A DNA stretch of 64,000 bases from Carcharhinus longimanus (lineage: Eukaryota): contig JASCQW010000130.1 of the NCBI GenBank assembly GCA_030264375.1, positions 25,875,010-25,939,009 of the forward strand, read 5' to 3'. Each line of letters begins with the position of its first letter. The first letter of the stretch is position 1. Of the stretch, positions 41,020-64,000 are shown in pieces. A program made the position numbers and the translations under genes. The notes beneath the pieces were generated by a model. It was not told the DNA's origin and did no database searches. It saw only the letters and a list, made by a program, of their open reading frames with translations.

Positions 41020-41088
41020 GAACTCGGTCTTGTTATCACAGGAACACTGCCCGTCTTCAACTTAACTAAAGATGCTAGTGGAAACCAG
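41020..41088 (+). CDS. CACNA2D1: CACNA2D1 coding exon (69 nt; ~exon 16)
   Basis: Splice sites caatag|GAA...CAG|gtatgt. Translates ELGLVITGTLPVFNLTKDASGNQ. Confidence 0.95.
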
Positions 41089-43706: not shown

Positions 43707-43973
43707 TCAGTGCTATTGCTATGATATTAATGCCTGCTGTTCAGCGTAACAGTGCAATACTGGGTAGGCTTTAACAAAAGGAAGACTGCAGTTCCCAAGA
43801 TCTAGCATAGTTTTACTGAGTTAATGTTAATACTTGGTGGGAAAAAAGTCTCGCCTGGCTCCAATTCACCAGGCCAGCGGTTTTCCCAATAGTTTTACAC
43901 AAAGCAAATTTAAGATAAAACTATAATGCAAAAATGTACATTTTTGAAAGGTATTGTTTATTTTACTTCTCAG

Positions 43974-44048
43974 AATCAGTTGATTCTTGGAGTGATGGGC
44001 ATTGATGTGTCACTTGCGGATGTGCAGAGACTCACACCACGTTACACT
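43974..44048 (+). CDS. CACNA2D1: CACNA2D1 coding exon (75 nt; ~exon 17)
   Basis: Splice sites tctcag|AAT...ACT|gtaagt. Translates NQLILGVMGIDVSLADVQRLTPRYT. Confidence 0.97.
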
Positions 44049-44893: not shown

Positions 44894-45055
<162 letters not shown>

Positions 45056-45917
45056 TAGATTAAAAAATGTGCATTATAATGGTTAATGCATGGGGACCTA
45101 CTATCTTGAGCCATTAAAAAGAGACTTCTGTTGAAATCGTTAAAACTGGGTGTCCTAACAAGTGCCAAAATGCAGCATTCCAGCTACTTATTGATTTGGT
45201 TCCTTCGCCTCTGATTAGAGTGAAATCTTCACCACATCATCTGCAGTGAATTAATATCAGGATCTCTTTATAGTGTGACTATGATTGAGAGGTTTTGCTG
45301 GAACCACAAAATGTTGTAACACAAGAGCTGTCCAAATCAGAGTCATTAATTTTAACAAGACAGCAAGATTGGGCATTTTTGTTACATTTTGTGTACGTCT
45401 TTGAGGGGCCAGGGTGAGAGGGGGAGTTCATTCAATTTTATATAACAGTGAAAAAAATTTACTGAGAATCTAGGACCCTGTAGAGTATTTGAATTGAAAT
45501 AACTAGTATCCGGATCATAGTTTTGAAGGTATATGCATGTATCGATTGGTGAGCAGGAACAGAAGAATGAGCAAATCTGCCCATTCGCCTTAAATTGGTT
45601 CTTCCTATGTCAAATCACCTAAAAGCAGCAGCTGTACAATGACGCATTAAACTCGTTTGGTCCTGAGAGAAATTTTGGAAGCATGAGCAGTAATGTACTC
45701 GCGCTCCAATAAAATGACCAATACAGTAAGCTACATTAATTGAGTCTAATTGTATTGTGCAGCCATTATCAATACAACTCTTGCTTATTGGACGTCTTCC
45801 ATCCAATTTGATAAATTCATGCAATACTTGTTTATAATCAATTCTTATTTCCAGTGAACCTAAGAAAAAAGAGTGTTCTGCCACTGATGTGTTAGATATC
45901 ACTGCTAGACATTGATA

Positions 45918-46219
45918 TCACTGCTGCTTCACAATACCAAGGACCCGGGTGCAATTCCCACCTCGGGTGACTGCCTGTGTGGAATTTGCACATTCTCCCC
46001 ATCCCTGCATGGGTTTCCACTAAGTGTTCCAGTTTCTTCCCACGCTCCGAAGATGTGCGGGTTAGGTGGATTGGCCATGCTACATTGTCACTTACTGTAA
46101 GGGGGATTCACAGGATAAATACGTGGGATTACAAGGATAGGACTGGGTGGGATTATTGTCAGTGCAGGTTTGATGGGCCGAATGGCCTCTCCTGCACCGT
46201 AGGATTTGATGATTCAATG
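45918..46219 (+). mobile_element. HE1/V-SINE copy
   Basis: cactgctgcttcaca...ggacccgggt...gttaggtggattggccatgcta...gatgggccgaatggcctctcctgcaccgtaggatt. Confidence 0.85.
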
Positions 46220-48147
46220 ATATTAAATTAAACCTACCCTGTATACAAGACTATGTAAGAGTGTGAACTCTGCAAGTGATGGAGGTGAGGTATAGTGGTG
46301 TATGGAAGTTAAGCCAATTCTGAATTTGGTGAAAATTCACAATGGTGGGAGCAAAGGTTATCATTTTTGCTCTTTAAAAAAGACTTGTATTGGGCAGTAT
46401 TGAACATTGGTACGCCATTGTTATTTTGTTCGCTGTTTGAGCCTTAAGGCAAAGTGTCAAGAAAATTGAGTTTGGAAGTGGCACCGTTTACCGAACCTTT
46501 AACCAGGCCAGTTTACACAATCTTAATAAAATCCCCATGCTGATGAGTTTTTACAATTTTGCCAGTTTGTTTATGATGCTGCATGGCAGAGAGACTGCTA
46601 AAGGAATTCTCATCCGAGGATAAGGTACTCAGCAAAGGTAGCTGAAGCATTGGCTGCCTTTGGTTAACTAGTTGACTAACATTAGCTTGAGCTAACCAAA
46701 ATCATTTACTGACTTTTCAGAGCTTCAATCTTTTTTTTTACTAGAAACTGCTTCTTAGGCCTAAACTTATTAATATGATATCATACAATGAGGTGAGTGT
46801 GTGCGTGTGAGTGTGTTTAAAACAGAGTAGAACTGAACCTTTTCCTGATGGAGTTGTAGCAGTTAAGGATTGAAATTTACCAGGCCAGGTGATCATTCAC
46901 ATCACGTCAGTAACTAATAAATTCAAAATCCCACTTATTTGATTGAAATCAGACATTGGTACTTGGCCAGTAGGAAACCATTGACTCCACTTTCATTAAT
47001 TACACACATATCCATGGACTTGCACCAAAGGTTGGGGTGTTCTTGGGCCTGCCTCTCAGCTGGTATATTGAGTTTAACACTTCTTTACAGTGAGAGAACA
47101 TTGCTATCATATGGCAAGAGAATATATATTTTCCAAACCCCTCAGCCATCTACCCTGTGGAGGTGGGTGTTGCTTGTTTCTTGACATAGAATGTAGGTGA
47201 TTGTTTTCTAATGTCTCTGGCCATCTTATTCTTAAAATCTGTCTCTGCCTCCTTCAATGCCATCAATCACAGAATACATTTCCAAATCGTGTGCATCGTT
47301 TACATCCAGAATAAACCTTCGTTAAATGATCTTAATATTTCTTTCAAAGAAATCTGTCAAAGGCATTCCTGCTTGTCAAAAGAGCCATAAACATTTTTCA
47401 TTCCCAGTGAGACGAGCAGGCCTGTGTTCTTCCCACAACTGTCAGCAAGGACATATCGCCTCACGAATGCAATCTCCAATTATGATGCATCTTGTCAAGG
47501 CCTCAACTTAATTAAAGGACTGTTGTGCCCTTAAGCAGTATCTGTGCAAAGAAAGAGGCAGCAGTAAAAAAAAACTAAATATTACCATCCAGACTGATTT
47601 TATTAGAAGTAATTAACACCACAAAAATGGCAGGGACAGAGACTGCATCCTGCAATATTTTCTCTATTATTTCACTCTTTTGTCCCTGTGCATTAATTAT
47701 TTGGTGGCGGCAATAGGTCAGAACTCAGTTCCGGCATTTAAGTCTATGCAAGCTACAAGGATTGTTGCAGAGAAGCGATTAAATCGTTGCAGTACAATCC
47801 ATTTGGCCCTCAGCCTGTAGCACGACACTAATTTACCAGGAATTGGCAATCTGGGCAAGGGACAACATGGAAGAGGTGTTTAAAATTACAGCCAAGCTGC
47901 CGCGGTTGTAGCAAAGCTGCTATCCTGAGACATTCTCATTATTAACTTGATTCATTCAAAACTGCACTCCCTTATTTTCTGACCCTCTGAAATGGAAATC
48001 TTCAGAAACAGTTGATACATATTCCTCACCCAGCATTTGCAACAAATTATGCAACATGTAGAGTGTTTTCACAAACCAGTAGAAGTTGGAAACCCAAAGG
48101 TCCCCCCCTCAACTCATCACTCCGAGAGTTTCCTAATCTCTCAAGTT

Positions 48148-48610
48148 TCATAACATACAGGAGCAGCATTTGGTCATTCACCCATTGAGTCCTCTCTGCC
48201 ATTTGATCATGGCTGATATGCGCCTGAGCCTCATTTTCCTGCCTCCTTTACATAACCCTTCAACCCATTACTAATTCAAAATCTGTCTAACTCCTCCTTA
48301 AATTTGCTCATTATCCCAGCATCCACAGATTCACAACCCTTTCGAAGAAGTAGTTTCTTAGTTTCTCCTCAACTGTTTTAAATTTGCTATCCTTTATCCT
48401 AAGATTATGACCTCACAGTCTAGAATACTGCACAAGAGGAAGAATCCACTCCAAGTCTACTTTATCCATACCTTTTATCATCATGTAAATCTCAATTTGA
48501 TCTTCCCTCATTTTTCTAAATTCCAGAGAGTATTGGCCTAAACTGTTTGATCTCTCTTTTTACGACATTACCGCCGCCCCCATATCTCTGGAAACAATCT
48601 AGAGAGGTTC
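48148..48610 (-). mobile_element. CR1 3' end fragment
   Basis: cataacatacaggagcagca...gatcatggctgat...acagattcacaaccct; reverse-strand CR1 3' region. Confidence 0.75.
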
Positions 48611-51160
48611 TTGGAGCTGGGGTTAAAAGATTGGATGTCCCATTGTAGATCCCATTGTCCTGTTAGTGGTACAAGAGAAGGAGCTCCTGCTGAGGGAAAG
48701 CAGGAACATACAGATTAAGTTAAATTGTGAAGAGTTGCTATCTGGAAAGAATTGGAAGGAATGCCATAAGTTTCTGAAAGACCACATTTGTGATAAAAGT
48801 AAAGACTGAGGGAAATTTTAGTGACTAAAAGGAAGAGAAAGGAAGTGCCATGAAAAAAAGCAGAAAGAGAAAACACCCTGAGATAGAAAATAAACTTCAT
48901 GCAGTTTGTCACTTATAAAAACTGATTCATTCTGTGCTGCACCCCCTTATTTTCTGATTCTCTGAAATGGAAGCCTTCAAAAACAATTCATTCAAATTAT
49001 TTGAGCTGCAGAGAGATCTGTACTTAGTATAATTGTACGCATTTTATAGGCCTAAAATATGCACAATAACATTCAGTTTAATAGTGCAGAGGCCTGCACC
49101 TTATGTGCATGGTCATTCAAACTCCTGTTCGGTTGATTGGACCCTTACAATTAGCTGGACTGGTGACCAGCTGAAATGAGTACTGGTCTTATCTCAATAT
49201 TGCAATGAGGCTCCTGTGCTCTTTGCAGACCTAGATCACTAAGTTAGTTTGATTTTTTTTGGAGCATGCTATATGTACCCCTACCCCATGTGCCCCTCCT
49301 GCTGCACCTCACTCCACCGCCATCTTTGCTTGACCTAATCCCCAATTTGCCTGGCAGGGCTGACACCATGCTCAGGCAGGGGACAAGGCTAGCCCATAGC
49401 ACTTGGGATGTGCTGATCCTTGGTTTGCCTGAGATGGGGCAGAGTAAAGAATCAGGGTAGCCAGAGATTAAACCGAGGCTTTACCTGATGCAATTTTTTC
49501 AATGTCATTTGATGACCTTGAAGATGAGGCATTAGGTCGAGTCCAGGAGGGGGTGCAATACCTCAGCCTGTCAGCTTGGATCTTGTTTGATCAAGCCCAA
49601 GATGGGATGCATTGGATCTTGTTTACCCTTCGAGTGGGGACCATGATTGGACTTGATTTGAATTGACTTTATTGATTAGAAAGGAAAAAGAAAATTCTCC
49701 CCCACACGCAACCCTGTCTATAGATCTCCGTGATGGACATAGTTAAGATATCAACAGACGGTAGAGGAAGCGAAGGATTAGTCCCCATTATACCATTATT
49801 TTCAAAATTCATGGGTTTAATTTTGGGGAGCTCACCTCATCGTTGGCGAACAAATTTTAGATATTTGAAGAGGATTTTGTCTTCAAATTCTGACCATTGG
49901 CTGGCTAACTCGACAGTCATCCTTGTCACTTCCCCAGCAAGCTATAATTTCACCTGGTTTTCTGCCTTTATTTTACACAGCTCAGGTAGCCAATAAATCT
50001 TAGATAGTTGGCAATTTATAACACTTGTGTGGCCTCTAAAGTGTGGAATTGTTTTTCATCGGTCCACGCTTGCGACACTGTGGGTGCATCAGTATTGTAT
50101 TCCCTAAGTAACTGTTACCAGAGCAACAGAATCCTTCTCAGTCGCAACAAAAATTAAACTGTCAAAGCCACTTCTACTGCCACATTTATCCTACCTAAGC
50201 AGTGCCAGTTGTAAAACAACTCTCACCTCCAAACTCCCCTGTCAAGGCTGCCGTAGATTTCTCATATGTTTTAATACAGTGCGCAGATTAAAATGTATCA
50301 ATCTAAGCCCTAGACAGGCTGAACACAGCCTTGAATTTTTGTCAAAATGTTACAGATTTCAGGCTTTGCTTCCTTCTTTCGATCATTCAGGTTTCTTTGG
50401 CACCTTCTCCCATCCTCATTTTCATCCTTCTGTGTCAAGAGCACAAGCAAGGTGTTACAGAAAAACCATCTCATGGTGACCTTATTATAAAAACTCTCCA
50501 CAGTCAATAAATATCCTTTCAAACAATTACTGCAAAATATTCTCCATTAAAACATTAGAAATGGAATATTCTTGCAGGACCTGGTGATCCTGTTGATAAG
50601 TAAATTGAGCATCTTGGATATTGTGCCAATGCATAATACAGGCATCCATAATTTACAAGGTGGTAATAATTAGATTGGTTTGTTGCAAATACATTTTGCG
50701 TATGAAGCCCATTGCTGTTACCATGTGACCATTAAACAATGAAGTAATTTGAAATATGTCGGTAGTGACTATTACATTTTAGTTAGACATTTGCCAAATA
50801 TTTAGCAATTTGACAATTGCCAAGTATTTATTCATGTCCCCCTAAAGTCAAATAGATTTTTTATTTAAGCTGTGTTTTTACTATTTAAGCTGAAAACAAT
50901 TTGTGATAAATTAAAGTGCAGTTCAAATCGAGTTCAATGAGTACTACATTCAGACACTTCCAACATAGAATTTGAGCTGTTTCTGTCAGTGTAAACAAGA
51001 CCAAGTGCATTGTGCCAGAACAGCACATCCACTGAATATATTTATACCAAAGTTTAAAAGTTTATACAAGCAACTGATCTTAATCGACTGCACTGTGACA
51101 GGGTTTAAGACATGGCCCCATTGGTGATCTGCACAGTTAACAAAGGCCCCTACTTAAAGT

Positions 51161-51454
51161 TACAGTGATTAGCACTGCTGCCTCACAGCACCATGCATCC
51201 AGGTTCCAATCCTGTCTTGGGTCACTATCTGTGCGGAGGATGAACGTTCTCCCCGTGTCTGCATGGGTCTCCTCCAGGTGCTCCGGATTCCTCCCACTAG
51301 TCTGAAAGATGTGCTGGTTAGGTGCATTGACCATGCTAAATTCTCCCTCAGTGTACCTGAATAGGCGCCAGAGTGTGGCGACTAGGGGGTTTTCACAGTA
51401 ACTTCATTGCGGTGTTAATGTAAGCCTACATATGATACTAATAAATGAACTTTT
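51161..51454 (+). mobile_element. HE1/V-SINE-like, tail type 2
   Basis: ttagcactgctgcctcacagc...ctcagtgtacctgaataggcgccagagtgtggcgactagggg...actaataaatgaactttt. Confidence 0.87.
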
Positions 51455-54400
51455 AAAATCATTTCAAATAATAACCTTTTGAGTGGAGATACATTTGTAC
51501 TCTATTTTCGAACAGTTGAAGTGGCAGTCCTGGTCCTTGCACATTTTAAAAGATGTTTAGAAATGTGAAAATGTGCTTATTAGCATTTGCAACAAATACT
51601 CCGTTAACATAAAGAACTAGCAATACAAATTGTGATACTCTTGATCCCATAGAAGGGACAATGCACCAGGCCTGCAAATAATAAGTATCAATGTCTGAGC
51701 CTTGAAGGTTTACAGTACCTCAAACGGTTTAATCTACAAACACATTTGATTAATACAAATTGACTGCTGTTGAAAAATATAGCAAACCTGAAGAAACAAT
51801 TCATTACAATGTCTTAAATGTACTTTATAGATTGCCTGATTTATAAGTCCATCTAAAGTTGCATTTGAAACTGCATTTCCCAGGCAAATTTCAAAACCTC
51901 TGTGACTAGTTCATAGTTCTGACGCTGCTTCCAAGATGTAGATTTAAGTTTTAGATTTCCAAAGAGTTTATTTATACATTGATGCACTTGCCAATCCTTG
52001 GTTTCTGCAACCCTTTCACATCAAATTGCAGGAGGTGGGGAGAGAATGAGCGTAGTTTCTCCAGGCCCAGGTTCCATTATTTCTAACAATTAGCTCAGGA
52101 GGGGGATGGTGCTGCAGGTAAGAACATTATTGGCTGAATGTTCACCGAGTCGGGATGACTCAGGAGCCCTTTAAACATTGCGGGCGGCTCGTGGTTTGGG
52201 GATTTCTGACCTCATTCCTGGGCTGTCTGATTTTAAAGGATGGGGGCTGCTTCCAGCCGATAGCCCATGGCTGGAATTCCCAATCTGGCCAGCTCCATTG
52301 TGGCGATGGGCATGTCCTCCTTTACAGTTTTCCTGGCATTGAGCCAAATTTTTAAAGAGTTTGTGAACCCTAATCTGCCTGAGGGGATCTTTTAAAAGTG
52401 AGTCACAAAAATCCTTCTCATGCCACATACACCAAGCTATTCATTCCAGCAGGCTCCCTTGCCATGGTTCTTCATGCCCCCTATGCCAAGCCACAACATG
52501 TCAGTGCTCCTCATTATCACTATGCCAAGTTATAGCACCCCCCCCCAACATGGCCCTTCATGCCAAGATGTGGCACTCACATGCCCATTGGCTCACTACA
52601 CACTGTAAAAAATCAATGAATCCCATAGTGACGCTAATATGTATAAAAATAGATTTTAAAAAGTAATTCTTTCATTTGTTACTTTCCATTATGTTAAATA
52701 AATCACTAAAAGGCAATAAAATATCGAGTATCTAGCTACTTTGAATAACAGAAACCACAAACCCTTGAAACCATGTAATCTTGTGTAAATAAATAACAGT
52801 GAAATTTATCACAGAGATCAATGACCTCAATCTGTCAATCAACTAATGTTTTCTGTGGAGTGCAGCTGTTGCCACAGGAGTAATGGATGTCTGGGCACTC
52901 ATCATTCAAGGAAATATTACTTTGCCATGCCAACATTGACAAACAGAATTAGTTTTCCTGATTTTTGTATTTCTAAAAAGTGATATGTATTTACTGTACA
53001 TTTTTATAGCAATTATACTCTGTGTGTGTGTCCGTGTGTGTGCAGAAGTATAGATGCAATAGAGGTAATTATTAGAAAATGTAAGTAGCATAGTTGGCAT
53101 TTCATGAAATAATGGTGGTTAATGAAACAAATATTTTGTTTTAAAAAGCCAATCCTCAGAGTAATTGATAAGAATTTTTAACATGGCACAATCATTTGAA
53201 TAGTCTTCACATTGCATTGTAGTCATTTGCCTGTTCAATCATTTTCAATGTTTCTGCATTAAAGCTCATATTTCCATTAACACGAGTTGCATATCAAATA
53301 CACAGTACAAGAACCAAGCAAAACCAATAGAAATCTATCTCTGATCCAATCCTACTCAGCACCGGCGAGCATTATTAACTTTATCAAATAGTCTGGTTGC
53401 ATGGAAGTTTTCGCATTGATACTCATATTGGAGCTAATACTTGGGGAATGTGATTATCCAAAAATAAAGATATATGCCTAGGTATTTTTCTAAAACTTTC
53501 TGATAAAACACCTGAACTCACAATGAGCTGGGCATGGATGAAGGAACATTTTATTTTGAAGCTACATTTTGCAACCATTGCTTTGCAAAGTTGTTACTAA
53601 TTATTTTTGATGAGAATATTTGAAGGGGAAGTTGAAGAAAATGAAGAGGATTGAACTCTCCTCCCTGCATGATATTGAGGGAGTGAAAAAAAACCTGGTT
53701 ACAAACAACAGTGGGAAGACCTGTGGTCTTACATGGCTTGAAAATATTTGTATGTTAGTTGTCAACAATTCAGTCATAAGCCCCTGAATTGTGCTTTTCT
53801 ATGTATATTTTATTCTAAAACTAAACCCAAAAGAAGAGCTTTCTCCTGAGATGAATTTAATTCCTAAGTAGTCATATTTCTCGATAAAATTAATGTAATT
53901 GATAGAATTAGAAAATATGTATTTTGAGAAACTGTTTGTGAATGTCTTCAATACATGAGCAAATTTAAGTTTGTGTATGTTAATGCAATAACAATAATAA
54001 TAAGCTGAGAATAAGGACATCTAATAGCTATGTTGCCTTTGATTTAGCCTTTATCGAGTTGATTTTTCTCACTCAAACCTGCTAATTGTTATAATGGTGC
54101 TGAAGTGTTCTTCATATCAATTTATTATCAGCCCGCACCTTCTCTCCCAATGTTTGGTTTTGAAAAGATAGGTAGTAAGAGGGGAATCTCAGAGTATCCA
54201 ATATTCTTGCAGCTCGTTTAAAATATTGACTGATAGCATGTCAGTGTAAAGAGAGATTTATAGGGACTTCTTGCCTGGCCCCATGCATTGAAACTTTCCT
54301 CATTCAAGAGGGTGGAATCCGGTTCCTGAATTTCTGGATATCTTTATGACAATTGGATAATACCAAAGATGACCTGTAGGGCATGTTTGATTACAGCACG

Positions 54401-55508
54401 GAAGGAAGATTGACTCCTCTCCCATCCTCCCCACCCCTCCTTCCCAGTAATGACCAAGACCTGAAGCTAACCTTGCCACCTGGGGTTAGATACCAGTCAA
54501 AATTAACTGGATAGAGATCAATTTGAGCCCTGCAGGACTCGCCTTGATGGGGAGGTGCAAGGCCAGTGTGGAATTAGGCATCAGACCTGGTTTCGATAAT
54601 CTGAATTCTAGTTGCTTGTCGGCATCCATCTATCACTAACAATGACGTCTGGGCCATTTGCCTCACTGGGAGTAGTGGGGCCACAGTGGAGGGAGAAAGG
54701 CATTCATTTAATGCTGGTACAGACTGTCAAAAATACTTCTGTGCTGGGAGGAGTAACTTTTGGCTCCTTGTGGCTTTAAATAACACCATTGTATTTAACT
54801 TTGCCATGTTGCCTGGAATAGCGTCATTTTGCTAGGAGTTACTGATCGATCTTAAGCCTCTCATTAACAGTTGCTCGAGGCTGATAGCTAGTTTTTAGAT
54901 TGTTGCCCTTNNNNNNNNNNGCAGCTGAAAAATAACCCAACCTTCTTTTGGGGTGGACATTTTTCAGCAACCTTAAAACACAACATGTTAGTCCCTGAAA
55001 TTAAATGTCATGGTGCTCAATTTGTGCCCATAAAATGCAGGCAACAAATGTCCAATTTCACATTTAAAAAAAAAATTATTTAAAAATCAACCATGAGGCC
55101 TGATGATAGAGGAGTAAAAATTTCTCTTCAAAACTTTCCACCCTCATGCGTGTCAGATTCCAATTGACTCTGGAAGCAGGGTAGCTGATGGATTTGTCAC
55201 TCACTAACTTTTAAACTTGTTCTTTACAACCATTGAGGGATTTTGTTGACTTGCCAGCTTTGGGATTGATGACTAGATTCCCAGGCCCGAGATTTCAGAT
55301 CTCAGGGTAAGCTTGCATTTGAACCCAGATCCTCACAGAAGCATGATGGAGCCACCAGTATATTTTAAAGAAAAATGTGATTGAATGTGAATTGATCCAT
55401 ATTGGGCTGTATTTCATAATCAAACTGTACAAAATAAATGGTATAATTTGTTAATCATGGAAACCATGATTTCAGAGGATAAACATTATAGTCTTGTTCT
55501 GACATTAT

Positions 55509-55640
55509 GGGCAGGATTTTCCAGTCCTGCCTGCCTGGGGACTGAAAGTTCTCGTCTGAAGTGAATGGACCTTTTCACGGTCTGTTAAATTCTCCGTCCT
55601 ACCCCAATGATTCCCGTGGCAAGCAGGACCGGAATATTTG
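55509..55640. mobile_element. MITE ~200 nt upstream of exon 18a
   Basis: gggcaggattttccagtcc ... ggaccggaatattt. Confidence 0.6.
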
Positions 55641-55841
55641 GGTTCACGTTTTGGCATCTGAATTGCACGCTGCATATTCTATTTAAAATTCATTTAAAAT
55701 GTCATGTGTATCCTGATCGATTTCAGACCTGAAATAACATGACTTGATCTCCATCTCATTAATATGCCATTTTAATCATAATATCTTTCATACTGATGAT
55801 TGCCATGTTAACCTAAAAACCATACTTTCTTATTACCTTAG

Positions 55842-55898
55842 TCAATTGGTGTAGGGATCCCAAAGATTAATTTAAGACAGAGACGCCCTGGTACACAG
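55842..55898 (+). CDS. CACNA2D1: CACNA2D1 alternative cassette exon (57 nt), orthologue of muscle-specific exon 18a / region A
   Basis: Splice sites ccttag|TCA...CAG|gtaatg. Translates SIGVGIPKINLRQRRPGTQ (19 aa, phase 0-0) versus the mammalian insert PIGVGIPTINLRKRRPNIQ, at the expected position after ...NLQPK. Confidence 0.92.
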
Positions 55899-58800
55899 GT
55901 AATGTCGTTGAAGGTACCATCAGTGCTGCAAAGCTGCCAGTATTGAAGCTTTTGGAAGGAGCAATGGCAAGCTTATGTTTAAATGTCTACCGTTGGGCCT
56001 GGCTACGAAAAATATCCTGAAGCATGCATTTCTACTTGCTTAGCCGATAATTAACCCATTACCCAAGGAGCTTGGCTCATTCTATGATAACATTTTGGGC
56101 AGTTCTCTTGTCTTCTAATGGCAGTGAAATATTAAAAATAATGTCAGCGTCAAGGTAAATGTTGTTTAGAATTGCTATGGCTGATTAAAGATTTAAGTGT
56201 AGCAGAATGGTTAGTTTTGTGTTTGACAGCTTGTCCTGTTTATTACAGAAACTGTATGTGGTCCATCCATTCCTTTGATGACTAGGGTATACTTTAATGT
56301 ACCATGCCATAACTGTGGACTGCATGTTTTCTGTTGCTGTCTATTCCTTTGGAAATGCAATTTGTCCATCCATCGTAAACTATTTTTAGAAAAATAAGTT
56401 TTTATTCATCAATATAATCTCAAAGTCATATTATGTATCTCTAGAAGAAGTCAATACGGATGTGCCTTGACTGTTTTCACTGCAGTGGGTCTGAATGGAA
56501 TGGCACAGTCATTGCAAAAATTCACATTGCCAAGTAATGGGAATCCCTTGGAAAAGCCAATTCACTTCATTCATTTCTGTTCAATGCTTGATATATCACT
56601 GATAATTACAGAAACGTATTTATCACTCGGTAAAATAATTGGCATTTTGCTTCATGTAAAAGAAAGTGTCCATGATCTAAGTCTTGTTCAGTCTTAGTAC
56701 CCAGGAGCAGATGACATTTGTTGGTTTACAATTAAAAGCTATTCAGGGTGAGCAATAGTGGAGATCCAAAATGATCTCAGTTCAGAGTTTGTTTTGTAAT
56801 TGGATTTCAATATCACGGATCTGAAGTTGTATCCTGGTAAAACTTGGCTTGACTAAAAACAAAATCACAGGTGCTTTTAGGATTGCACTCAGCAACAAAA
56901 TAGTTAATATCTACTTTCAGGCGCTAATGACACTTTAACCCAACACTTAGATTTGAATTTTTCTCTACACATTGTGAGCATAGCTGACGTAAACTGAGCT
57001 GTGGGAATATGAGGACAGAGCATGTGCATGGGTCATCAAATGCGTTGAGAAGTCCTTGGTTTTCATCTCTATCATCTGGAGTCATTGAATTCCACACTTG
57101 ATCTAACTAGCTGACCCATGAACCCTCTCGCAAGACCAGGATTGGTAGAGAAGCTGCACTCTGCATTTCAGGTTGGCGCCATTTTTTTTGAAGCATCACA
57201 TGGACAGTGTGTAACTTGACCATTCCTCCCTGTAGACAAGTAATTCAGCGACAGCTCCCAACTGCTCCACGTGGCCCAGTTCCAGTAAGGTGCTCCGAGC
57301 AGCACTCTGTAACATAGCATGCTGCCCGTGACCACACAGGGCCAAAGACATTGTCCCAAGCACGCAAATAATTTAGAATAAATTGGTGACATATGCTCAA
57401 ATTAGAGCAGCACAAATGATGACTTCCCAGAGGTTTTGCAGCACAGATTATTATAATCAGAAACAGGTTTAGACTCCGGAGTCAGAACTGAACTGATTTG
57501 CTCATCCCTAATAGCTATTAAGAATTCTAATATGAAAAATGGTTTTGCTTTCCTTCTGAATATTATTTAATAAATTTGTTGTAAAGTTTGCATACATTAC
57601 ATCTGACTGCTCAGAAAAATGAATATCAATGTCAGTACAATTTAACCATTTTTCTGTTCAGCGTGTATGAGTTAATTAAGATCTCTGCATATTGCATTTT
57701 TAGGCCACTTAGATGTTCTTTGAAATATAAGAAATACATCTGTGAAGAATTATCCTTTTTTTTGGTGCTGTATAAATATGTCATTGTCAGATATTCATTG
57801 CTATATCATTATTATTTTCATTCAAAGTATTTGCATGAAATTAATGCGAACTTCATTTAAGAGATCAAAGTGTGTACGGAAAAAAAAATCCCCCCTTTTC
57901 CAGACTTCATGCATCACTGTCTGAAATACTTTGAATTCTTGAGCTCCTTCCCTTTGCAATGACATCTCTTTGGAGGCTTTTGATTTTGTTGGTGTATGAT
58001 GTGCTGCTTTTATCAGTTTCTTTTTGTCTTAGCGAGCCCTGTGAAGTATTTGCATGAGCCTGTTGTGGAAAATAGCCATTGTAAACTTTCTGCCTGTAAT
58101 AAGATTTTGGGTAAGTTATCATTTGACAAATTGAAGTACAGTGGAAGAAACTGAACAATTTGTGAGGCATTGGTGCAATAGCATCACAAAATCTTACTGT
58201 TTAAGAGATGGATCGCAGTATTTGGGAATCTTGAACAAGCATTAGCTAAAAAAGGACAGCTTTCCACATTTGATTTTAATGCTATTCCCTACCAATTTTG
58301 ACCCGGTATTCCACAATTTCACTATACAGGTTTTAGACTCCAGTTTCCATGATAAATTCCTATATTAAAATTTATGCTTGGATTCAAGACTACTGGAAGG
58401 ACAAATGAAAGAAACATATACCAAACATGGAAACATATACCAAACATACAGCCCCACCCAATCTGCTGCCCAACTGTTAGCAATTGTGTCTCATCATGTG
58501 TTTCTCTTCGAAATATTCACTCAATATTCTCCCTGAAGATGTCTGAGCTACTTACCTCCACAATCAATGGCCACCATTGGTGTTTCCATGCGTGCTGCCT
58601 GAATCTACAGCTCAGTTTGCGCTCAAGACACTTTGTTCCACTTTCACGCTAATGCAATTAGCTGTGATTAATCGGCACAAAGGTTGTACCTCCAATTCTG
58701 TCTTAAGGTCAGTAAATAAAGTGTAGATCTTTTACTGAGATGGATGTATCCTGCACGAGAATGAGGTTCTCATCTGTAAGAGTTTGGATATATCTACCAA

Positions 58801-58973
58801 CAGGCATCAGTAATAAAATCAGCGACTACAGGCAGGATCTGAGAAAAGAAGTTAATGTTTCAAGTGTAATCCTCCTTCAGAGCGCCTGTTTATAAACTTC
58901 AATCCACAGGTTTTGGCTGTTGACACAAAACTTTAGAAAGAGGTTCTCTTGGATGCATAGATCCAAAGTTTAT

Positions 58974-59110
58974 GGCTGGGATTTTCAGTCTGTTCACACC
59001 CCACTGTTGCTGCAAGTGAGGATGGAGAATTTGGTGCTCAGTCGACTCTCTGTTCACTGCAGCGGGATCAGAAAATCCCACCAGCGTGAATGGCTGGAAA
59101 ATTCCATCCA
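58974..59110. mobile_element. MITE (family of 12407)
   Basis: ggctgggattttc ... gaaaattccatcc; shared gaggatggagaatttgg core. Confidence 0.7.
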
Positions 59111-60249
59111 GATAGCAGCGAATCATCCAAACCTCAGCACACACGAAATGCCATACAGTTCATTGAAATAAAATGCAAAATAACCAAGTGGCTGATGCCA
59201 ACGTATTAAAACCATTCTGACTCGGGGAAGGGGCAGATTGGGGGCGGGGGGGGTGACTCAGGGGAGGAGAAATCATTTACTCCAGCATTTTCTGATAACA
59301 AGAATTCCTGTTCCCGTAGTTGGAGCTCTAGATCCAAAAATGTATTTTTATCGAGGGACTGCTGGCTAGATTTTAAATCTGGGGCCAGGAAGCCAAGAGC
59401 CAGATCGCTTCTAGGTTTGACCTCTAACTGTATCAGCATCAATGATGTAACGTGGCTTTTAAAGAGACAGGCTATTGGCCGAGAGGCACCCAGTCAGCAG
59501 TTTCAGATATAGTTTGGAGGCAGGACCTTGTGATGGAGGGTGATTTTAAAAGGAAAACAACAGTAGTTACCAGGGGAATGGAGCAGGCAGAAAAACAGAT
59601 GGCGGGCAGACTTATGGCTGACAAAAGTGCCTAAACGCTCAGGCCTCAAGTTTTGAACCAGCTGAAGAAGCAGTGGTAAATTTGGTGCCATTACCTGAAC
59701 ACCTCTGTTTGACCATCCTTCTTTTAGACAAGATCTTTTGTCAGCAGCATAGTCAGTGCTGTGCTCCTGAAAGCTGTGCCCTGATATGTTCCAGGCAGTT
59801 CATTCTTCCCATTATTGATTTTGAAGATTTGATTGTCTCTCACCAACATGTTAATAAGCTCTTCAATGAGCTCAACAGCAAGTTAATTGGAGAATGAGGG
59901 TTGCTGACACACCCCTGCCCGCCGCCTCCCATTAAAAATTCCACTGCCACAAAGACATTAGAGGACTGATGCATCACCCAAGTGTGTTATTTTTACAGCA
60001 CCCGTCTGCCCTCAACCTCACCCCCATGGGTGATTGAAAATCCAGCCCAGCCTGTAGGTGCATCATTGTTACAATCCAGGAGGTCGAGTGGAAGAAGCGT
60101 GAATTGGTGCCTTCACCCTAGCAAATATGGGCAAAATTGTCTTGAATTACTCTACAGTATTCTTGCAGCCGAAATCTGGTATAATACAGAGATTGAAGCA
60201 TTGTTAGACTCTCATAGAGACGCTTGTGTGCCTCCCTTATCGACAGCAG

Positions 60250-61102
60250 TCAGGGCATCAAGTTTACAAGTCGGCAAATTATGTTACAATTATATGTAAC
60301 GTCCTGTAGACCACATTTGGAATACTGTGTCCAATTCTGGTCTCCACCCTACCAGAAGGATGTGGAGGCTTTGGAGAGAGTGCAGAAAAGGTTTACCAGG
60401 ATGTTGCCCGGTATGGAGGGTATTAGGTATGAGGCGAGATTGAATAAACTGGGATTGTTCTTCCTGGAAAGATGGAGACTGAGGGAGCAACCTGCTAGAA
60501 GTTTATAAAACTATGAGGGACATAGATAAGGTGAACAGTTGGAAGCTTTTTCCCAGGGCAGAAATGACAATTACAAGGGGGCACAAGTTCAAGGTANNNN
60601 NNNNNNNNNNNNNNNNNNNNNNNNNNNNNNNNNNNNNNNNNNNNNNNNNNNNNNNNNNNNNNNNNNNNNNNNNNNNNNNNNNNNNNNNNNNNNNNNTGGG
60701 GTCTTTTAAGAGACTTCTGGATGAGTACATGGGGTTTAATGGGATTGAGGGTTATAGATAGGCCTGGTAGGTACGGATACGATTGGCGCAACTTGTGGGC
60801 CGAAGGGCCTGTTTGTGCTATAGTGTTCTAAGGTGTATGGAGAAAAGTTTCGAGGAGATGTGTGAGGCAAATGTTTTTACACAGAGGGTGGTGAATGTCT
60901 GGAACGTGCTGCCCCGGGAGATGGTGGGAGCAGATACAATCGCAGCATTTAAAGAGCATCTAGATGAATACATGAACAGGATGGGAATGGAAGGATAAGG
61001 AATCCGAAAGTGCATACAATTTTAGTTTTGGCGGACATCATGATTAGCACAGGCTTGGAGGGCCGAAAGGCCTGTTCCTGTGCTGTACTGTTCTTTGTTC
61101 TT
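60250..61102 (+). mobile_element. Two CR1 3' ends in tandem (gapped)
   Basis: RPHLEYCVQFWSPPYQKDVEALERVQKRFTRMLPGME; FTQRVVNVWNVLP; two gggccgaa.ggcctgt tails at ~60797 and ~61059. Confidence 0.9.
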
Positions 61103-61261
61103 TGACAGATAACTGGAACACAACATACAGGGCAGCAAAAAAGGGCTGCATGTGACCAAGAGAACAAGGGATTAAGAAAAGAAACAAAACTTCAGAAATA
61201 CATCAAAGGGAAATAAACCCTGACCAGTAAGAGCTCAAGTTTTTCCACAGCCAGTGGAAGT

Positions 61262-61335
61262 CCAGCTTTTCACAGTTACTTCATTGCGGTGTTAATGTAA
61301 GCCTACTTGTGACACTAATCAATAAATAAATAAAT
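61262..61335 (+). mobile_element. Tail-only fragment of the type-2 SINE
   Basis: ttttcacagttacttcattgcggtgttaatgtaagcctacttgtgacactaatcaataaataaa. Confidence 0.8.
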
Positions 61336-61401
61336 GTTCAATGGTGATGAGCGCAGGCCAACACAGTTGCATTGCTCACGCTCATCGTTGTTGAATGAGA
61401 A

Positions 61402-61600
61402 GGTAAATTTGCCACAGTCCCAGCTGACTGTAGGCTTTTCTCCCCTTTGAGGGTGAGAGCTGACTGGTGAGGATCAGACAGGGTTGAGAAGGCAAAACCT
61501 TTATGAGTAACCTCAGCTGGTACGGGAATTGAACCTGCACTGTTGGCATATCTCTACATCATGAACCAGCTGTCCAGCCAACTGAGCTAAACCAACCCCC
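61402..61600 (-). mobile_element. tRNA-headed SINE (family C)
   Basis: Minus strand ggggttggtttagctcagttggctgg (A box) ... caggttcaattcccgtacc (B box). Confidence 0.75.
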
Positions 61601-62623
61601 TGGAAAAGGCAGCGAATTACACATTAGTACGCGTGCACGTTCAAGTTCAGAGTGCCAATCAGTGGTCACCTCTATTGCCCAGATTCCCATTTATAGAATA
61701 AAGCTGACAAGACAGTCTGCGGTGTGCTGAGGCAGCTGAATAATTTAAACTTAAAATGTGGCTGTACGCTGTTGAAACTAATGGCGTGCAGTCTTGCCAT
61801 CAGCCCTGAACTGCTGATTTGTGCAGCATTATGTTGTGTGCGCCTGGCGGTCCCCTGATTCCAAATAGGACCCAAAGAATGTCACTCTGAATTTAGTCGA
61901 ATGAAGTTCTTTTCTCGGGTTGACCCCATCTCTATCTGGACCTAACAAAGTGTGACCACCTGTCGTCACGGAAATAGCATATCCACATTGCTGTTTGAAA
62001 ACTTCCACTAAAATGATTTGACTGGATTTACTTAACCCTGCACACACACATACGCTTTCATATTATAAATGACTGGTACTTTTAAGGCCATCGTCAAGTG
62101 CATAGTTTCTTCCTCTGTAATTCATTATTTTTATGTTGTTGCCATGTAAGATATTCTTTGCAGAATTGCTTCTGACTCTTATTTTTCTTTCCATGGCCCA
62201 CATGTATCGGAATGTGACGTGACCTGCTTACCTCCTCATACCAATATCTTGATGCATGCTGCATGGTTGGTAATGTCGTGGGATCTTCTGTGCATGTAAA
62301 CTCTCTCCATTTAATTCTGTCTGATTTATGATTTAATTTGGATGATTCTTATGTTATTATAAAATATAACAAACTCCAGTTGTATTCTTGTTACGTCAAG
62401 AGGAACTATGCGCTGTAGTATCTTGCAAACTATCTGTAGAGACAGGATTGAATCGGGCACCTGTAATCAGGTGCTCTTTGGTCCGTGGATATAAAATCTC
62501 CGATCTTTACCAATACTCTTTCATTAGGAATGCACGCTAAAGAAGCACTTTATGAAACCAATGCAAAATTGGCATTTTGTTCATAGATATGCTAAGCGAT
62601 AGTTGGGTAAAACAGTTCAGTTT

Positions 62624-62920
62624 GTCACAATGGCACAGTGGTTAACAATGTTGCCTCACAGCACCAGGGACCCAGGTTCAATTCCAGCCTCAGATGACCG
62701 TCTGTGTGGAGTTTGCACCTTCTCTCCGTGGCTGCATGGGTTTCCTCCCATAGTCCAAAGATGTGTAGATTCGGTGGATTGGCCATGCTAAATTGCTCCT
62801 TATTGTCAGGGGATTAGCGCAGCGCATGAGTAGAGTTATGGAGTTGGAGCCTGGGTAGAATTGTTGTTCGTGCGGACTCAGTGGGTCGGATGACCACCAC
62901 CTGCACTGTAAGAGTTCTAT
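62624..62920 (+). mobile_element. HE1/V-SINE copy
   Basis: tggcacagtggttaac...ccaggttcaattccag...gtggagtttgcac...ctgcactgtaagagttctatg. Confidence 0.85.
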
Positions 62921-62987
62921 GAAGAGAGACTAAATTGTTGCAGTCGTGTTTTCCTTCCCGATCTTGGATTAGCAGTTAGGGTGATAT

Positions 62988-63435
62988 GGGTGGCATGGTT
63001 TCACAATGGTTAGCACTGTCGCCTCACAGCACCAGGAACCCAGTTTCAATTCCAGCTTCAGATGACTGTCTGTATGGAGTTTGTACATTCTCCCCATGTC
63101 TGCTTGGGTTTCCTCCGGGTGCTCCGGTTTCCTCCCACAGTCCAAAGATNNNNNNNNNNNNNNNNNNNNNNNNNNNNNNNNNNNNNNNNNNNNNNNNNNN
63201 NNNNNNNNNNNNNNNNNNNNNNNNNNNNNNNNNNNNNNNNNNNNNNNNNGTGGGTCTCCACTGGGTGCTCCCGTTTCCTCTGTAAGTTAGGTTGATTGAC
63301 CATGCTAATTTGCCCCTTAGTGTCAATGGGACTTGCAGAGTAAATATGTGGGGTCACTGGGATAGGGTCTGGGTGAGATTGTGGCCAGTGCAGGTATGAG
63401 GGGTCAAATAGTCTCTCTCTGCACTGTAGGGATTC
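62988..63435 (+). mobile_element. HE1/V-SINE copy (gapped), in tandem with the previous copy
   Basis: gggtggcatgg..tggttagcactg...ggtttcctccgggtgctccggtttcctcccacagtccaaagat...ctgcactgtagggattc. Confidence 0.85.
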
Positions 63436-64000
63436 AACACTACTATTATGTTGGGGTTTTATTTTCTGGTCCCCTGTCTGACAAGTCCCCTGTCTGCCGC
63501 AAGTTGAATACCAGAGTGATTGGATGAGTGGCTTAAGTGGGCATTAATTGCCTAATTAAGGGGCATTAGGGCAGAGACTTCATGCTCAGACTTAATTAGG
63601 TGGAGGTGGCGAAATGGCAGGAAAGTAATGGGATACCCATCCCACATCCTCCCATCTGGTCAAATACAGCCCTCAGCCTCCAAATCTGCCTCGAGTAGCA
63701 TTAAATTCCATCCCATGTATGATTTACAAAATCATCATTACCTTCAGAATGCTGAGGCACAAATGTAAGTTAAAAGAAAAACACACCCAAACCCCGATCC
63801 ACTATCTTGAAAAATATTTTTCTTTCCCGTCAATCACAGAATTTTCCTGAAGCATTTTCCTTCATTTTGATTTTATCTCACCTGTGATAATTTTCCAGAT
63901 GGTTACATTAATCCATTGGCTGAATGTGAGATTATGAAGTAGAAATATTTTGATTTTGCAAGCATACTGTCGCAAGAGGTCTCTTGGCAGCATCCTTGCC

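Follow-up and report, generated by a model that had tools for sequence, protein, structure and literature searches.

The region A cassette exon of CACNA2D1 in a cartilaginous fish

Region A in mammals and in the shark gene

The closest described counterpart of the exon studied here is region A of mammalian CACNA2D1 (exon 18a of Lana et al. 2014, PMC3988960; a 57-bp exon 19 in PMC5577920). In rat and mouse, region A is included in skeletal muscle and skipped in brain (PMC3988960, PMC9901441). Passages of PMC3988960 describe +A+B-deltaC as the sole variant of rat skeletal muscle and deltaA+B+C as the cortex form, and they also place +A variants in rat heart, so that region A is not strictly skeletal. 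According to the same passages, gabapentin binds +A+B-deltaC with high affinity and deltaA+B-deltaC more weakly (KD 153 nM); with C present, A leaves the affinity unchanged, and the authors assign A no direct part in binding. Within the first double-cache domain (dCache_1), regions A and B are located in a loop, and the role of the inserts is called unknown (PMC9901441). Depletion of alpha2delta-1 is reported to speed activation of CaV1.1 while excitation-contraction coupling is spared (PMC4672716).

The mammalian exon is regulated during muscle development. In mouse muscle, inclusion of the 57-bp exon 19 of Cacna2d1 increases by 53 PSI between postnatal days 2 and 28 (PMC5577920). Exon 19 is described as MBNL-dependent (PMC5538435, PMC6942047), with a shift of 0.57-0.59 in congenital myotonic dystrophy and in Mbnl1/2 knockout muscle (PMC5538435); PMC7913682 gives CACNA2D1 by gene name only. 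Because size and position match, region A is probably what the myotonic dystrophy papers call 'exon 19', and the exon described below is then probably the same one that serves as a mis-splicing marker in that disease (PMC5538435, PMC6942047).

The window, that is, the whole stretch of 64,000 nucleotides that was analysed, contains an ortholog of this exon (Table 1). The first-pass annotation had proposed a 57-nt, phase-0 AG/GT exon lying 10.8 kb into the intron after ...NLQPK, and both the sequence and its translation confirm that structure. The exon is preceded by ...ttcttattacctTAG and followed by GTAATG, and it translates without a stop to SIGVGIPKINLRQRRPGTQ. The upstream exon ends in phase 0. 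The next exon, located by tblastn with protein queries in the window and the 120 kb that follow it in the genome, lies outside the window beyond a downstream intron of 11,055 nt and is also in phase 0. The cassette exon is thus a separate one, with the NLQPK exon before it and the exon that has region B at its start after it, and with 57 nt and phase 0 on both sides it keeps the frame whether it is included or skipped.

Table 1 Features of the CACNA2D1 locus around the cassette exon. Plain coordinates refer to the window; those beginning with L002 or L004 lie elsewhere in the same gene.
Feature	Position	Strand	Remarks
Earlier CACNA2D1 coding exon	41020..41088	+	tblastn limits
Preceding CACNA2D1 coding exon	43971..44048	+	tblastn limits
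Upstream exon	44975..45049	+	75 nt, ends ...NLQPK, GTAAGT donor; 23/23 aligned residues identical to PDB alpha2delta-1
Upstream intron	45050..55841	+	10,792 nt
Pyrimidine tract and TAG acceptor of cassette exon	55826..55841	+	read from sequence; TAG = 55839-55841
Cassette exon, region A (exon 18a / exon 19)	55842..55898	+	57 nt, phase 0-0, 19 aa
GTAATG donor of cassette exon	55899..55904	+	
Downstream intron	55899..64000	+	extends beyond window to next exon, L002:2954
Region B	L002:2954-2968		15 nt at start of next exon, between tandem acceptors TAG and CAG
Region C, candidate microexon	L004:1954-1965		12 nt, non-canonical GC donor (GCAAGT)

Several pieces of evidence identify the exon as region A: (i) It agrees with the mammalian exon in its gene, its length of 57 nt and its phase 0, and it follows the NLQPK exon and precedes region B in both cases. 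(ii) For most mammalian inserts 14 of the 19 residues are identical, with Ser1, Lys8, Gln13, Gly17 and Thr18 unlike the common mammalian form. (iii) When 1200 six-frame intron segments were scored with a profile built from the inserts of ten bony-vertebrate proteins only, the exon ranked first (E = 1.8e-11), and the next-best segment reached E = 1.0. (iv) All 11 sequences matched by the exon peptide in the PDB at E <= 10 are alpha2delta-1; the matches are individually weak (E 0.028-0.042), and the exon falls on residues 532-556 of 7mix_D, directly after the match of the upstream exon (508-530). (v) A shark alpha2delta-1 protein matches 29 exons of the gene in collinear order, and the named hits of the protein search are alpha2delta-1 or carry generic names. 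The earlier assignment to region A of CACNA2D1 is upheld by the profile score, the position and the identity to mammalian inserts. In its own genome the exon has at least one match by DNA search and at least one by protein search. It is a new copy of a known exon, which public models of related species already contain.

The whole A/B/C system is encoded in this gene. The second acceptor of region B is used in 5 of 42 cartilaginous-fish models. Including the candidate microexon of region C would yield the peptide of the Chiloscyllium model P0250, and skipping it yields the form seen in P0246 and P0256; rat region C comprises 7 residues (PMC3988960), whereas the shark microexon has 12 nt.

Host, distribution and conserved residues

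The host had been taken for a probable cartilaginous fish from the window alone, and comparison of the encoded protein agrees. Traced with the Heptranchias sequence as guide, this protein is 84.5-96.5% identical to 14 chondrichthyan proteins but 65.9-74.7% identical to 11 bony-vertebrate proteins (up to 735 columns). In a tree built without alpha2delta-2/3/4 sequences it falls within the shark-and-ray clade with support 95, its nearest neighbour inside that clade having support 40.

Region A is present in models of 10 of the 12 cartilaginous genera sampled. By model, 19 of 42 include it and 23 skip it, and 7 genera have models of both kinds; the model clusters were seeded by exon-containing models, the largest cluster is represented by 15 of its 50 members, and Pristiophorus includes two UniRef models whose names are truncated, placed there by cluster and identical insert. 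The conservation in other chondrichthyans that was to be expected is therefore found. The further suggestion that the exon may be missing from automated annotation fails as a general point: XP_ models are automated predictions, and the NCBI XP_ and UniRef models of these 10 genera show that automated annotation already detects the exon in the group. The window exon is identical to the 19 cartilaginous inserts at 12-18 of 19 residues, and to none of them in full. The closest is that of Heptranchias perlo (XP_067861039.1, 18/19); further examples are those of Scyliorhinus (XP_038667405.1, 17/19) and Callorhinchus milii (XP_007889125.1, 13/19), all three with the same flanks.

Beyond cartilaginous fishes, a search with the elephant-shark insert and its flanks gave 152 hits, the best 120 of which come from cartilaginous fishes, bichir, paddlefish, lungfish, amphibians, reptiles, birds and mammals; these 120 include no named teleost and no lamprey or hagfish name. 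All the bony-vertebrate groups among these hits, and sturgeon as well, have models with classical region A, whose presence in both cartilaginous and bony vertebrates bears out the proposal that the exon is older than their split. Survival from shark to mammal points to selection. None of the titles returned by a literature search, with most subscription papers outside its coverage, concerns region A in cartilaginous fish or the second insert described below, and the passages of PMC12303104 contain nothing on region A. A preprint on tissue-specific exons covers 20 species including elephant shark (bioRxiv 10.64898/2026.09.05.749416); its main text, as far as available, does not name CACNA2D1, and its supplements may include the region A exon.

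Which residues are held constant was examined in 41 distinct 19-residue variants from 106 of the 120 proteins, with seven proteins lacking an exact anchor and seven of a 17-residue form left out. Gly3 and Pro16 are invariant (41/41), and Arg12, Arg14 and Arg15 occur in 38, 39 and 34 of the 41 variants, respectively. The basic RxRR patch had been regarded as conserved. The window exon does read RQRR, but only 3 of the 19 cartilaginous inserts have RxRR versus 16 with RxRH, and the bichir, sturgeon and paddlefish inserts are without the first Arg of the patch. The constant features are Gly3, Pro16 and a loosely basic stretch, with no fixed RxRR motif. Conservation thus picks Gly3, Pro7, Arg12, Arg14 and Pro16 as residues to mutate, and RxRR as dispensable. 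Several snake and lizard models (P0232-P0236, P0239) carry a region A of 17 residues, two shorter than the usual form.

RxRR is also a furin-type cleavage consensus. Cleavage of this type was considered as a conserved role and rejected, because 16 of 19 cartilaginous models have RxRH.

Splicing in cartilaginous fishes

With including and skipping models side by side in 7 cartilaginous genera, the exon is very probably spliced alternatively in this animal. The reading we favour, by analogy with mammals, is that the exon is the shark and ray copy of the frame-preserving region A exon, probably adding its 19 residues to alpha2delta-1 in maturing skeletal muscle and being skipped in brain. Skipping would be the default, and it is likely that inclusion increases during muscle maturation in an MBNL-dependent manner. 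The added basic surface loop could tune the contacts of alpha2delta-1 within the CaV1.1 complex, and it may offset the lack of region C. An AlphaFold2 model of the Heptranchias isoform (46-row alignment) has a mean pLDDT of 50.7 and is uninformative on the region A loop, since residues 473-561 fall below 50.

The strongest alternative accepts a real, alternatively spliced exon but holds that it is not restricted to muscle in cartilaginous fishes, muscle control having arisen later, in bony vertebrates or in tetrapods. This is unlikely, at roughly one chance in five by our reckoning, and three observations speak for it. Sites for MBNL, RBFOX or QKI are not enriched downstream of the exon: 250 nt contain 3 YGCY against a background mean of 2.88 (a count reached by 54% of 416 windows), together with one GCATG (a count reached by 30% of windows), no TGCATG and no ACTAAY, although motifs this short give such counts little power. 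Non-neural tissue-specific splicing is often poorly conserved, according to the available text of the preprint (bioRxiv 10.64898/2026.09.05.749416), but the same text treats vertebrate muscle as an exception with notable conservation. Finally, none of 215 teleost models has the exon, which shows evolutionary change at this site. Against a late origin of muscle control stands, besides the exceptional position of muscle and the little power of the motif counts, the presence of the complete A/B/C system in the shark gene.

Muscle-regulated inclusion is challenged far less by the remaining alternatives. That the exon is constitutive in this species would suit its canonical AG/GT sites and clear pyrimidine tract, but it is skipped in 23 of the 42 cartilaginous models and both forms are present in 7 genera, which makes constitutive splicing highly improbable. 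Equally improbable is that the exon is a silent remnant or a chance match which splicing never includes: the PDB E-values are weak when taken alone and the joints listed include no junction read, but the frame is open, the splice sites are intact, 18 of 19 residues are identical to the Heptranchias model and the profile gives E = 1.8e-11. The joints in question come from four of six runs, all contigs, aligned over window positions 44900-63000, three of which cover the intron evenly in a DNA-like manner; among the 15 joints listed (beside 3848 others) none links 45049 to 55842, a result that is neutral on splicing.

A second basic insert at the same site

Some relatives carry a different Lys/Arg-rich insert at the region A site, for which we coin the label A'. 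It is in frame, of KRI type and 8-20 aa long, and its site is equivalent to window 45049/55842. Carriers are one sturgeon model, three frog genera and many teleosts (P0280, P0111, P0073, P0427, P0428, P0430). As the sturgeon (P0280), teleost (P0111) and frog (P0427) inserts illustrate, A' shares its insertion site with classical A but differs from it in sequence, and a profile of A' scores classical A inserts at <=2.3 bits. Pairwise and profile scans of the shark introns did not find A' (best E 1.7-1.9; 210 of the 21,904 intron bases are N), and none of the cartilaginous or amniote models fetched has it. In sturgeon (P0083, P0280) and in the frog Hyperolius (P0427, P0432), A and A' occur in separate models, and no named model with both anchors carries the two in tandem.

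Among 215 teleost models (230 less 15 without anchors), A' occurs in 68, an unrelated insert in 12 and classical A in none, and the remaining 135 lack any insert; the sample is biased, 37 models having come from a search for A', and the elephant-shark insert hits being the best 120 of 152. The CaV1.1 channel of euteleosts is non-conducting for calcium, whereas sterlet CaV1.1 conducts and osteoglossiform channels are without the blocking changes, as stated in passages of PMC5538450.

A tentative scenario, which we consider improbable as a whole, would join these observations. A would be a muscle switch dating back to the origin of jawed vertebrates and serving a conducting CaV1.1; bony vertebrates would have gained the mutually exclusive A'; teleosts would have lost A and retained A' while the calcium conductance of their muscle channel disappeared, amniotes would have kept A and dropped A', and the shark would show the ancestral A-only state. 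The link between the teleost loss of A and the loss of CaV1.1 conductance is a single correlation, a hint that serves only as a lead. If the exchange of A for A' in teleosts is true, it provides a natural experiment on the role of the loop, and it warns that zebrafish may not model the region A exon. Such an exchange would matter more than the shark exon itself, where the gain is modest, public gene models already containing shark region A.

Both introns around the cassette exon hold very high-copy interspersed repeats (~45500-46700, 50900-51500, 60000-61800 and 62400-63000), over which contig depth reaches about a million, versus about 10 for unique DNA. Another organism (X2) has a small run of 4.2 million letters, in which a 230-base contig spans the exon and part of the downstream intron (window 55815-56026) with 1 difference in 212 positions; the other listed pieces of X2 fall on repeats. 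A further organism, C, shows 87 differences in 2812 bases around the exon.
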